Part shown: one piece after another, positions 58,654 to 61,544 of the stretch
Numbering within the stretch: position 1 is the first letter of the stretch
Layout: each line of letters starts with the position of its first letter
Origin: Chthoniobacterales bacterium
GTDB lineage: Bacteria; Verrucomicrobiota; Verrucomicrobiia; Chthoniobacterales; Chthoniobacteraceae
Reading direction: 5' to 3'
DNA: 64,000 nt
Assembly (NCBI GenBank): GCA_038207335.1
Contig: JBBQZX010000026.1
Coordinates: 1-64,000 of the forward strand
Program-made: the position numbers and the translations under genes
Notes under the pieces: model-generated
What the model saw: the letters and a program-made list of their open reading frames with translations, nothing else
Told to the model about the DNA's origin: nothing
Database searches by the model: none

Positions 58654-58996
58654 GGAAAGTCGGCCGCGCACGCCCTCGTGCGCGTTCGGAGTTTCGGAGG
58701 GATTTCGCGCGTGACAGGCGGTTTCGGAGGCGGGTAGGGTATTTCCGCAGAGATGCGGGAGGATTTTCAACATCGAGGTGGTCGAGCGGCTTTGCGCCCG
58801 GAGGGGTTCGCGATTTCCCCGGTTCGTTCCTGCGGGTCAGGTTGGCGATGTTTGGTCGGAATGCACCATCCTGCTCGGGAAAGATGCTGCCGTCCGAACG
58901 GATTTTGCGGTCCTGCTGGCGCGGTTTTCGCGATTATCCCGTTCACAAATGTAGGGTGATTTTGTGGGTTGAAGCGTAGGCGTCACTCGCCTGCGT

Positions 58997-59122
58997 TTAC
59001 TTTGTCGGCTTCGCCTTCTGGCCGACTGGCTTGCTGACCTTCTTCGGCTTCGTCGGCTTAATCGTGAGCGCGCGGCGCATGATCTCGTCGAATCCAAGCG
59101 GTTGCGGTGTTTTTGATTTCAA
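58997..59122 (-). CDS. Small basic IS passenger peptide
   Basis: TTG start; LGFDEIMRRALTIKP followed by a Lys/Pro-rich tail. Confidence 0.4.
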   Translation of the reverse strand: MKSKTPQPLGFDEIMRRALTIKPTKPKKVSKPVGQKAKPTK

Positions 59123-59243
59123 GAATTCAACATACCCGAAAGCTACGGCGGCTTCCACTTCAAACTGCGCTGCCCTCTCATTCCATGTGATACTGTTTTT
59201 TTTCTGCTTGCGTGCTACTTCGGGGCAAGCTATTCGTGCTTCC

Positions 59244-59687
59244 GTGATCACTGCTGAAATTATCAAATCCGAAATTACCGAACTCGATCTGAAACTCTCC
59301 GCGATGGAGCCACTTCGGAAGCGCCGGGACGCGTTGAAGAACCTTCTGGAAACCTACGGCAACGACGAAACTCAACCTCGCTTGCTCGACGCTCCGAGCC
59401 TAGCGCCATCTGAACGCTACAAGTCGCTCGGAACGACACAAGCAATGATGGAGTTCCTGCGAGACTCGCCGGGCGCATATTTCAGCCCGCGTGACATCGG
59501 GAAGGCGATGCTGGCTGGGGGACACGAATCCAAGTCGCCGAACTTTTTCAACATCGTTTACACGATCTGCAAGCGAAAGGGTGAAGCTGGCGATTTCGAG
59601 GTTGCGGAACGCAAAGGGAAAAAAGTTTTCCGACTTCCATCTCAACCAGCCGCAACGACCTCGGCGCAACCACAGGAAGGAAGGTGA
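59244..59687 (+). CDS. IS passenger protein: coiled coil plus probable winged-helix domain
   Basis: Heptad pattern IKSEITELDLKLSAM...LKNLLE, then AMMEFLRDSPGAYFSPRDIGKAMLAGG...VYTIC...GKKVFRL. Confidence 0.7.
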   Translation: MITAEIIKSEITELDLKLSAMEPLRKRRDALKNLLETYGNDETQPRLLDAPSLAPSERYKSLGTTQAMMEFLRDSPGAYFSPRDIGKAMLAGGHESKSPNFFNIVYTICKRKGEAGDFEVAERKGKKVFRLPSQPAATTSAQPQEGR

Positions 59688-59901
59688 AACAACACGTATG
59701 AGCAACCAAGCATACGCAGAAATCTGCGAGCACGGTGACGGCGACACGCCGCCGCCCCAACACCCGGCGCGATTGAGAGATCGACGCTGCGCGCCGGGAA
59801 AGAAACAGCCGATTGACCTAAAGCAACTTTGAACGGCGCAATGGTCAATCGGCTGGAAACTCGGATCGTCGGGCGAGGGGAAACCCCGCCTTGAACCCTA
59901 A

Positions 59902-59999
59902 GCAGGCGTGGCGCAAATGGAAGACGCGGAGGACTTGGAATCCTCTGGGTGCCTCTGATCAGGAATACACCCATGCGAGTTCGACTCTCGTCGCCTGCA
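59902..59999 (+). tRNA. Non-standard tRNA: Leu-type class II body with TGG (Pro) anticodon
   Basis: Acceptor GCAGGCG/CGCCTGC + A73; D-arm TGGCGCAAATGGAAGACGCG; anticodon arm GAGGA-CTTGGAA-TCCTC; variable arm TGGGTG-N16-CACCCA; T-arm GCGAG-TTCGACT-CTCGT. Confidence 0.85.
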
Positions 60000-60051
60000 A
60001 CCTCAACGTCGAATTTTAGCACTAAAAGTCAACGATGAATTGCAGCACGCT

Positions 60052-61032
60052 TCATTTCTGCTCCGCCAAAGGCTTGTATGTGAGGCGTTTGCCTTCGACT
60101 TTTTTCAGTCCGGCAACCGTGCGCTCTCCGTCTGAAACCTTGCGGTGATTCCAGCGGAAATCGAATTCTGCAACGTATTTCGGCAGGTGCTTTTTGGAAA
60201 TGTGGTGGAAATTTCCGGCGATTCCACGCCGCAAAAGGCTGAATGAGCTTTCCGCGTAGTTTGTCGTGACAACCTCGCCGTCCGCCTCGATGCGGTGATA
60301 CTCTCGCTTGCCGCGCAGCTTTGCGTGACGCACTGACTTGTGGACGAACTCTTTCGGTAAATTGATGTATGGCCGACTCTCATCGGTGTTGACCGTCGAT
60401 CCCGCTTCGACGTGATCTTGCACGGCTTTGTGCAATCCCTTGGCCGTTACTCGGTCAAGAACGACGGTTCGCCGGGTTCCAGTGGAACGCTCCACAAGCG
60501 CCACAACGCATGATTTTTCGGCGTGCGCTCCCGGACCGCGAAACTTCGCTTTTGTGCCGATATAGCACTCATCGACCTCGACGATTCCCGAGAGTTTGCC
60601 CTCGAAAATTGGATCGGTCATTGCGTGCCGAATCCGATGCGACATGAACCACGCTGTTTTGTAGCTTCCGAGACCAAGATGCCGTTGAAGCTGCTTTGCG
60701 CTCATGCCTTTTTTTGCGCCGCAAATCAGATACCAAGCAACAAGCCAGATGTTGAGCGGCACATGCGAATCCTCGAAAATCGTGCCGACCGTCACGCGGA
60801 ATTGTTTCGTGCATTGAGCGCATTGCCGAATCCCGACGCGGATTTTTTTTGCCGGATTTGATTTGAGATTCCAAAAGAGAAGCTGATCACTGTTTCCGCA
60901 ATGAGGGCACACGACGCCATTCTCCCACCGAATCGACTCCAAATATTTGATCGCCGTCTCTTCTGTGGAGAAGCGCAACATGATTTGCGGGAGCGTCAAA
61001 TCCTCTGGCGTTGGAAGCAATTTCGTCTTCAT
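60052..61032 (-). CDS. IS1595-family DDE transposase
   Basis: Zn ribbon CPHC...CAQC, HTH, catalytic EVDE, NTDE, TNYAES; YVAEFDFRWN. Confidence 0.96.
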   Translation of the reverse strand: MKTKLLPTPEDLTLPQIMLRFSTEETAIKYLESIRWENGVVCPHCGNSDQLLFWNLKSNPAKKIRVGIRQCAQCTKQFRVTVGTIFEDSHVPLNIWLVAWYLICGAKKGMSAKQLQRHLGLGSYKTAWFMSHRIRHAMTDPIFEGKLSGIVEVDECYIGTKAKFRGPGAHAEKSCVVALVERSTGTRRTVVLDRVTAKGLHKAVQDHVEAGSTVNTDESRPYINLPKEFVHKSVRHAKLRGKREYHRIEADGEVVTTNYAESSFSLLRRGIAGNFHHISKKHLPKYVAEFDFRWNHRKVSDGERTVAGLKKVEGKRLTYKPLAEQK

Positions 61033-61544
61033 GGAATCAAAATTCCATTTCTCTCAACATTTGTCAAGGGGATAATCGCGGCGGTTTTGCAACGGTACGG
61101 CTGTAAGGGCAGAAATCTGACACGACAACCGCACCAACACTCCTATTTCGTCATTTTTTCCCAAAAAAGCTGGCGAACCCGTGTGGTTTGATGTGCGCTA
61201 TTTAGCCCCTTAACGTGCGGGGAGCGGTGCTGTTGGCGCTGCCGATTGGATATGCTCGCGTATGTCTCGCGATACATCGGGCGAGTATGCTTAACGCCCC
61301 GTATGTGCATTTCTTTTATGTCTTCGGAGCGATGGAATGCTTCGTCTTCATCGACCCGATAACTGCGTCGCCTATCGGTGCGATTTTGTCGATCATTCCT
61401 TTGATTGTGGGGCCGCTAGTGATCTTAGCGAGTTCCTGCGTGATCTTCCGGCGGCACCGGAATTCCCGGTTTCACTCCGTTGCATTTTGGTGGGGAATGG
61501 CCTTATTTCACGATGTCCCTTCTGGAGGACCATGGCGCGTCCTT

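Follow-up and report, generated by a model that had tools for sequence, protein, structure and literature searches.

A tRNA gene with a leucine-type body and the proline anticodon UGG lies inside a complete IS1595-family element of a Chthoniobacterales bacterium, and in related elements the anticodon of such tRNAs co-varies with a single codon near the end of the transposase gene, here called the gate, i.e., the codon at +2 to +4, counted from the Tyr of the KRLxY motif near the C-terminus. The tRNA belongs to a widespread, apparently undescribed family, and comparison of the elements makes us lean, with considerable reserve, towards a role in which it inserts leucine at the gate codon and thereby activates the transposase. 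The window, that is, the whole analyzed stretch of 64,000 nucleotides (contig JBBQZX010000026.1, positions 1 to 64,000), contains the following features of the element.

58929..61080, no strand assigned: complete cargo-carrying IS1595-family element, 2,152 bp (TIR pair 20/22 identical, plus an 8-bp target-site duplication, TSD)
58921..58928, no strand assigned: left target-site duplication, 8 bp, identical to 61081-61088
61081..61088, no strand assigned: right target-site duplication, 8 bp, identical to 58921-58928
58997..59146, minus strand: small ORF rich in Lys and Pro, with an uncertain start, of a kind common to tRNA-bearing and tRNA-less elements
59244..59687, plus strand: 147-aa coiled-coil and winged-helix protein, candidate repressor (AF2 fold; no Pfam match)
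59902..59999, plus strand: class II tRNA with leucine-type body, UGG anticodon, A37, and long stem-bulge-stem variable arm
59936..59938, plus strand: UGG (proline) anticodon, shared with at least 108 well-formed genome matches
59946..59974, plus strand: long variable arm, its outer and inner stems separated by a 4-nt bulge on the 3' side
60052..61032, minus strand: IS1595 transposase, 326 aa, Zn ribbon and DDE, KRLTY-K-P-L end (Pfam PF12762, PF12760)
60070..60072, minus strand: candidate gate codon Pro321, CCT, followed by Leu322 (from comparison with related elements)
61006..61014, minus strand: codons 7-9 of the transposase, CCA-ACG-CCA, with two conserved CCA near the start

All features of the IS1595 family are present, namely, the Zn-ribbon and DDE transposase, the TIRs, and the 8-bp TSD. 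The small ORF, the 147-aa gene, the tRNA, and the convergent 326-aa transposase follow each other in this order, with 52 bp between the tRNA and the transposase stop. The element is present in a single copy in the host genome, its GC content being about 53% vs. 62% for the host. The AF2 model of the transposase has a pLDDT of 91.6, with residues 310-326 devoid of secondary structure in the monomer; a search for a solved IS1595 transposase structure returned zinc fingers only. A promoter scan of the element found no sigma-70-like promoter. Three inverted repeats, at 59763-59798, 59806-59855 (13-bp arms), and 59872-59890, are located between the winged-helix gene and the tRNA, and are possible operator, attenuator, or processing signals. 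Small Lys/Pro-rich ORFs occur in most elements and form at least three sequence clusters, one of them almost confined to tRNA-bearing elements (16 out of 17).

The tRNA is the 7/5 cloverleaf that the earlier note had described inside IS1595, with UGG at 59936-59938. The acceptor stem (59902-59908/59992-59998, 7 bp, G1:C72, C2:G71) is followed by U8 and G9, the D-stem GCG/CGC has C13 and A22 unpaired, and the D-loop reads A14 A15 A16 U17 G18 G19 A20 A20a G21 A22. The anticodon stem has 5 bp and the loop is CU-UGG-AA, with A37; the variable region at 59946-59974 comprises 29 nt with U48 or 28 nt without it; the T-stem has 5 bp, including G49·U65. A73 is at 59999, and the CCA end is not encoded, the next bases being ACC. 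With the Rfam tRNA model, the gene scores 46.8 bits (gathering score, 29; E-value, 7.8e-7). ARAGORN, which had been expected to report a Leu isotype with a Pro anticodon, missed the gene with default settings and misfolded it at a lowered threshold. Minimum free energy folding gives the cloverleaf, at -37.9 kcal/mol (z = -1.89), and 7 out of 200 shuffled sequences are equally good; the cloverleaf is accepted because covariation in the family settles what this fold shows weakly. Contigs assembled from one sequencing run with this DNA contain no variant at a depth of about 16.5. Since the genome itself may have been assembled from this run, the check for error rests on the homologues, and sequencing error as the origin of UGG is rejected, as homologues have the same anticodon.

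The body carries the tRNA-Leu determinants A73, A15:U48, G18 G19, and A20a, and lacks the leucine anticodon (A35), having UGG instead. In the leucine register of the variable arm, one unpaired base precedes U48, and here the arm consists of U44, the stem, A47, and U48. The determinants of bacterial tRNA-Leu given in PMC9976931 include A15:U48, G18 G19, and A20a, and agree with the family features A73, U48, and the leucine register of the variable arm. The molecule does not resemble P-type tRNA-Pro, with G1:C72, A15:U48, A37, and the 29-nt variable region vs. C1:G72, G15:C48, G37, and a short loop, respectively.

To characterize the family, GTDB genomes were searched with a pattern combining the Leu-type D-arm with UGG, which yielded at least 119 matches, 108 of them well formed among the matches listed; 13 out of 145 pattern matches with broken stems are left out of the tRNA counts. 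According to record titles, the well-formed matches listed come from Acidobacteria, Proteobacteria, Planctomycetes, Verrucomicrobia, Actinobacteria, Chloroflexi, and other groups. Among the matches listed, an IS1595 transposase is found nearby in 56 out of 77 genome loci with flanks, and is absent from the available flanks in the other 21; it is nearby in nine out of 24 loci on viral contigs (ten by HMM). In 38 distinct elements, the tRNA lies within TIRs bounded by a TSD; a further 22 distinct elements with defined ends have no tRNA. Such tRNAs are rare: 401 genomes of the phylum contain two true matches with any non-A35 anticodon, both with UGG, one of these being the window copy. No match to the family was found in plasmids. 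The tRNA is convergent with and downstream of the transposase in 30 out of 56 cases, the remaining 26 having other orientations.

The leucine-like D-arm alone was rejected as proof of leucine identity, as in phages it is found on tRNAs that have G73 or C73 and whose Asn, Ser, Gln, and His anticodons are cognate. Hence A73, U48, and the register of the variable arm were counted separately: these features, none of which was imposed by the search pattern, are present in 127, 129, and 121 out of 129 distinct family members, respectively. The pattern did impose A15, G18, G19, and A20a. G1:Y72 is found in 118 out of 129 members and C1:G72 in ten. Every stem shows many pair types in the 129 members, the pairing rates being partly circular due to the stem filter, and 16 long-arm members fold into a cloverleaf in which 15 out of 24 pairs have two-sided changes. 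Thus, compensatory changes in all stems support purifying selection, in agreement with the earlier argument from intact pairing against decay; likewise, the family determinants together with the TIRs and TSD bear out the reading of a leucine-type body with a proline anticodon in a mobile context. Long variable arms are present in 41 out of 129 members, many of them with the stem-bulge-stem structure seen at 59946-59974. Among the 108 listed matches, 64 have A and 42 have G at position 37, so that A37, correctly noted for this tRNA, is not universal in the family. None of the 129 members shares C13 with the window copy, their base at this position being A, G, or U.

In loci chosen by transposase similarity alone (79 metagenomic loci and relatives), leucine-type bodies carry UGG (L015, L033, L063, L073), UUA (L034, L057), or CUA (L059, L077), and none with a leucine anticodon was seen. 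This comparison of stems and anticodons in related IS1595 elements, which the earlier note had proposed, rules out a private mutation.

Several other unusual tRNAs were observed. Phage contigs (viral loci L092-L211 and L405-L463), without IS1595, contain A73 Leu-body tRNAs with UGA, UCC, UGC, UGU, UUC, UCU, AGA, UUA, and CUA anticodons, as well as class II tRNAs in which Asn, Gln, His, and Ser anticodons are cognate. IS1595 elements of the host family contain class I UGG tRNAs (L005:3050-3124, L007:65-137, L012:1645-1720, L465:3199-3275) with G1:C72, U73, and an unusual T-loop, whose acceptor resembles that of host tRNA-Thr. An additional unusual tRNA-like gene accompanies the main one at L240:3915-3988, L227:4081-4152, L248:4096-4169, L290:4087-4159, L059:1316-1383, L245:1756-1846, and L063:1996-2088, with anticodons GCU, GUU, UUG, UUU, and GCC on mismatched or reduced bodies.

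The main observation concerns the gate. The anticodon/gate pairings seen are UGG/CCA, UUA/TAA or TAG, CUA/TAG, and AGG/CCT. In the site counts, which leave out six transposases with internal stops, duplicates, and six sequences from another subgroup or incomplete, and which do not allow for phylogeny, 41 out of 51 UGG elements with a leucine body (including the window copy) have CCA: 37 at +3, one at +2, and three at +4. The remaining ones have CCT (two, the window copy and L220), TAG (one, L240, a mismatch left by the rule), or other codons (seven), and all these seven have CCA in the N-terminal (I/L)-P-x-A-C helix. Six UUA elements have TAA (four) or TAG (two), all at +3, both CUA elements have TAG, and the single AGG element has CCT. 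A stop at +3 is present in eight out of eight elements with stop anticodons vs. one out of 51 UGG elements (Fisher test, 4e-9, the statistic ignoring kinship). Four stop-gated elements run on into similar basic read-through tails. The transposases of L057 (UUA/TAA) and L077 (CUA/TAG) are 92% identical, codon and anticodon having changed together, and the gate classes interleave on a transposase tree built without the last 12 columns. In a new set of eight elements from the host family, all three with CCA at +2 carry a UGG tRNA inside the TIRs, and the other five have no UGG tRNA (two of these lack a parsed motif); the closest of the new elements (63% identical), whose tRNA has a long arm and A37, is among the three with CCA. 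Taken together, the codon-anticodon match is strong comparative evidence. The earlier note had proposed Pro-to-Leu mistranslation but overlooked the gate codon of the transposase, which co-varies with the anticodon and is the likely target.

The bias is specific to one codon: CCA accounts for 0.31 of Pro codons per transposase in UGG elements vs. 0.13 in tRNA-less ones (p = 1e-11), seven other NNA codons show no difference between the same sets (p = 0.21-0.98), and the extra CCA codons cluster immediately behind the KRLxY motif at the C-terminus. General codon bias was rejected, as only CCA is raised, with no clear increase in the small ORFs or in the upstream genes, where it makes up 0.20 of Pro codons. 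The +1 frames after CCA gates are short and not conserved, so that the suggested promotion of +1 frameshifting by the tRNA was discarded; no support was found for the nuclease decoy or integration signal suggested along with it. Suppression of stops inside cargo genes was rejected as well, as no fused cargo ORF is evident in four elements and the signal is at the transposase stop. Three loci with UGU, UGC, and GGA anticodons on leucine bodies (L421, L137, L138) have in-frame Leu and no clear matching site. Side observations are a near-invariant CCA in the (I/L)-P-x-A-C N-terminal helix (L213, L219, L224, L230, L233, L235, L243, and relatives), where it encodes 23 out of 24 prolines of the column, and a ParA-like ATPase gene in both amber-suppressor elements (L059:1579-2613, L077:3734-4873).

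Relatives without a tRNA (n = 60) frequently reach leucine in a different way. Leu in the +1 frame is found at exactly +3 in 31 of them, vs. one out of 54 UGG elements; no other offset between -3 and +7 has it in more than six. The +1 tails of these 31 elements have a median length of 25 aa and 27% K/R, and T or V comes next in 24; L067, L070, L072, L080, L085, L400, L401, and L402 are examples of what is apparently an unannotated C-terminal frameshift. Five elements have Leu in the -1 frame (L082 and L084 according to their translations, the other TCA cases by inference), two have UGA at +2, and two have in-frame Leu. Nine keep CCA at +3, eight of them in one clade and five TIR-complete with no tRNA in cis; these would need a tRNA in trans, or their CCA has another cause. 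Five plasmid elements of the subgroup in cultured bacteria have no tRNA and show +1 Leu (three), -1 Leu (one), or in-frame Leu (one), a sixth belonging to another subgroup. The different forms of recoding (UGG/CCA, stop, +1, and -1) would thus all arrive at one Leu-hydrophobic end. UGA at Y+2 was observed in L467, L032, and L393, followed by Leu in the first two (UGA-C context), with no tRNA inside; UGA-C at the transposase end is possibly a further gate, working by leaky read-through. The rare ATA at Y+3 is seen in L011/L395 and L466, also with no tRNA inside, and Rfam found no tRNA in the eight UGA- or ATA-gated loci scanned. UAU is the commonest anticodon among allo-tRNAs according to PMC5389517.

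The window transposase ends with Y-K-P-L, and 89 out of 120 nearest proteins end with x-P-L. Pro321 is CCT here and CCA in seven related Y-K-P-L elements with a parsed C-terminus (L007, L012, L014, L015, L464, L465, L468). For this clade, the claim narrows to Pro at +2 needing replacement, as Leu is already at +3, and leucine itself may not be essential in the host-family clade, given the class I Thr-like UGG bodies in three elements. The conserved CCA codons 7 and 9 (CCA in nine and eight out of 15 nearest homologues, respectively) may be further targets. The credible Pro genes in 41 host-family genomes are UGG and CGG only, with no GGG (a divergent GGG gene could escape the pattern); hence UGG should read CCU in this family by wobble. 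With no credible tRNA-Pro(GGG) gene found in these genomes (G000 and 40 others of the family), four-way wobble by UGG is implied in a high-GC lineage.

The 147-aa protein upstream of the tRNA has no Pfam match; its AF2 model (pLDDT 87.7) has a coiled-coil and winged-helix fold, for which the fold search gave only weak winged-helix matches, e.g., Fur (E-values about 0.006-0.03), and the Atlas clusters are unnamed or HARE-HTH-like. A co-oriented candidate ORF lies just upstream of the tRNA in 76 out of 111 loci, many encoding coiled-coil and winged-helix or DUF5343 proteins. A profile of 37 upstream proteins matches 16 out of 38 tRNA-bearing elements, where it is circular, and none of 22 tRNA-less ones. 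From this arrangement we infer that the winged-helix protein may repress the tRNA. Among the cargo, PIN-type pairs occur in eight out of 22 tRNA-less elements, and no PIN or PIN_10 was found among the scanned ORFs of the 38 tRNA-bearing elements (108 out of 116 selected ORFs were scanned), which carry other TA-type genes (Panacea, ParE, NYN), the two sets being sampled differently.

These data suggest the following scheme. The element-encoded leucine-type tRNA with the proline anticodon would be expressed, receive its CCA end, and be charged with leucine by LeuRS; it would then insert Leu at the proline gate codon near the transposase end, in the window copy reading CCT321 by wobble. The form with the non-proline tail, unstructured in the monomer model, would be the active transposase. 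The winged-helix protein would repress the tRNA, so that transposition, together with collateral proteome-wide Pro-to-Leu errors, would take place only upon induction. A role of the tRNA at the gate is proposed because the anticodon co-varies with the codon and the tRNA is conserved inside the TIRs, and its activating effect on the transposase seems to us slightly better than an even bet. With similar caution, we would favor the more general view that a large IS1595 subgroup locks its transposase with a "wrong" gate codon (CCA, TAA, TAG, CCT), the tRNA under its own repressor being the key. It is also somewhat probable that locks by codon are interchangeable with frameshift or leaky-stop locks, and that induction would transiently change the genetic code of the host.

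The choice between leucine and proline depends on charging. The host already has five Leu (CAA, CAG, GAG, TAA, TAG) and two Pro (TGG, CGG) tRNA genes, and thus filling in for a missing isoacceptor was rejected; its own tRNA-Pro genes have C1:G72 and G37. The tRNA bears G35, G36, and A73, the bases on which E-type ProRS relies. The G72C substitution costs 135-fold with P-type and 9.6-fold with E-type ProRS (PMC11229370, Table 1). The argument that G1:C72 excludes proline charging is weaker here, since the host ProRS is E-type only and proline charging is possible. Among 50 hosts selected from the genome loci, 16 have E-type and 33 P-type ProRS above the cut-off, two of them both, and P-type-only ProRS coincides with a G1:Y72 tRNA in 25. 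If the tRNA were charged with proline, or if the amino acid were irrelevant, it could relieve stalling at rare CCA codons and so raise the yield or stability of the transposase. The E-type ProRS, the frequency of CCA (0.84% of codons in long host ORFs), the conserved CCA pairs near the transposase start, the C1:G72 minority of the family, and the Thr-like body serving some elements agree with this; however, it accounts neither for the elements that have a stop codon or a +1-frame Leu at this site nor for the near-perfect retention of leucine determinants, and the 25 P-type-only hosts speak against it, so that we consider it unlikely. An equally improbable role is that of a toxin or abortive infection system, with the winged-helix protein repressing a mistranslating tRNA that arrests growth upon induction, a role put forward for allo-tRNAs, and the codon match being a by-product. 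The regulator-then-tRNA layout indeed mirrors the antitoxin-toxin cargo of sister elements, PIN pairs are confined to tRNA-less elements in the scanned ORFs, the module is also found without IS1595, and induction of allo-tRNAs killed E. coli (PMC5389517). Yet such a role does not predict the site-specific match or the paired swap of TAA/UUA to TAG/CUA, and the other TA-type genes of tRNA-bearing elements weaken the cargo argument.

Even if the gate operates in the family, the window copy may be attenuated or drifting, its tRNA barely acting on its own transposase. This is suggested by CCT in place of the CCA of the seven relatives, the single copy, and the unique C13; but all stems, the TIRs, and the TSD are intact, L220 also combines UGG with CCT, and CCU is a UGG-read codon in a family with no credible tRNA-Pro(GGG), which makes drift rather improbable. 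Least probable is a function outside translation, in which the loop pairs with the codon off the ribosome (T-box-like, or as antisense of the convergent transposase mRNA) or serves as a nuclease decoy. The convergent downstream position in 30 cases and the conserved bulged variable arm would fit it, whereas the 26 other orientations, the position of the matched codon in frame at a fixed site of the protein, and the read-through and +1 tails, being protein-level signals, do not.

If true, this would be a new way to control transposition, with a sense codon deliberately re-read. What natural mistranslating tRNAs such as allo-tRNAs and tRNA-ProX do for their hosts is not known, and the present family would offer a purpose, a target codon on the same element. 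The C-termini of many IS1595 transposases would be wrongly annotated, with read-through and +1 tails overlooked, annotation tools would miss such tRNAs or label them tRNA-Pro, and nature would provide Leu-inserting suppressors of the missense, amber, and ochre types, some of them with long bulged variable arms.

Passenger-carrying (transporter) IS1595 elements were reportedly described by Siguier and colleagues in 2009; they share the transposase, TIRs, 8-bp TSD, and passenger genes with the window element. In Streptomyces, the bldA tRNA-Leu(UAA) controls TTA-containing genes, that is, a regulated tRNA gates genes by one codon, as proposed here; that tRNA is cognate and chromosomal, whereas the window tRNA is mobile and non-cognate, its match being with the transposase of the same element. 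In the searchable literature (titles and abstracts), no IS1595-borne tRNA or tRNA-gated transposase was found, and the tRNA family, the codon-anticodon match, and the recoding lock are apparently undescribed.

The closest analogs are allo-tRNAs (Mukai et al., 2017, PMC5389517; also treated in PMC7609411), in which the long-variable-arm body and the anticodon disagree, with many anticodons including UUA, and which mistranslate in E. coli and are located near toxin-antitoxin and transposon-related genes. They differ in having an 8/4 or 9/3 structure, a tRNA-Sec-like D-arm, mostly Ser or Ala identity, and G73 or U73, vs. 7/5, a 3-bp D-stem, and Leu for the window tRNA; their supplement has no UGG row, and the passages available describe no codon match to a neighbor gene. 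The tRNA-ProX of Streptomyces and Kitasatospora (PMC10404621; see also PMC11415595) is a natural dual-identity tRNA with variable anticodons that mistranslates sense codons. It is the reverse of our case, having a C1:G72 Pro body, a non-Pro anticodon, and an adjacent ProRSx, for which the window tRNA has no counterpart; the words transposase, mobile, and UGG are absent from the available text of that paper. Finally, IS1, IS3, IS5, and IS630 limit the active transposase by recoding, namely, by programmed frameshifting (PMC5009743, whose searchable text does not include IS1595). These elements fuse DNA-binding and catalytic ORFs using host tRNAs, whereas the proposed IS1595 gate would act at the extreme C-terminus with the element's own missense or nonsense tRNA.
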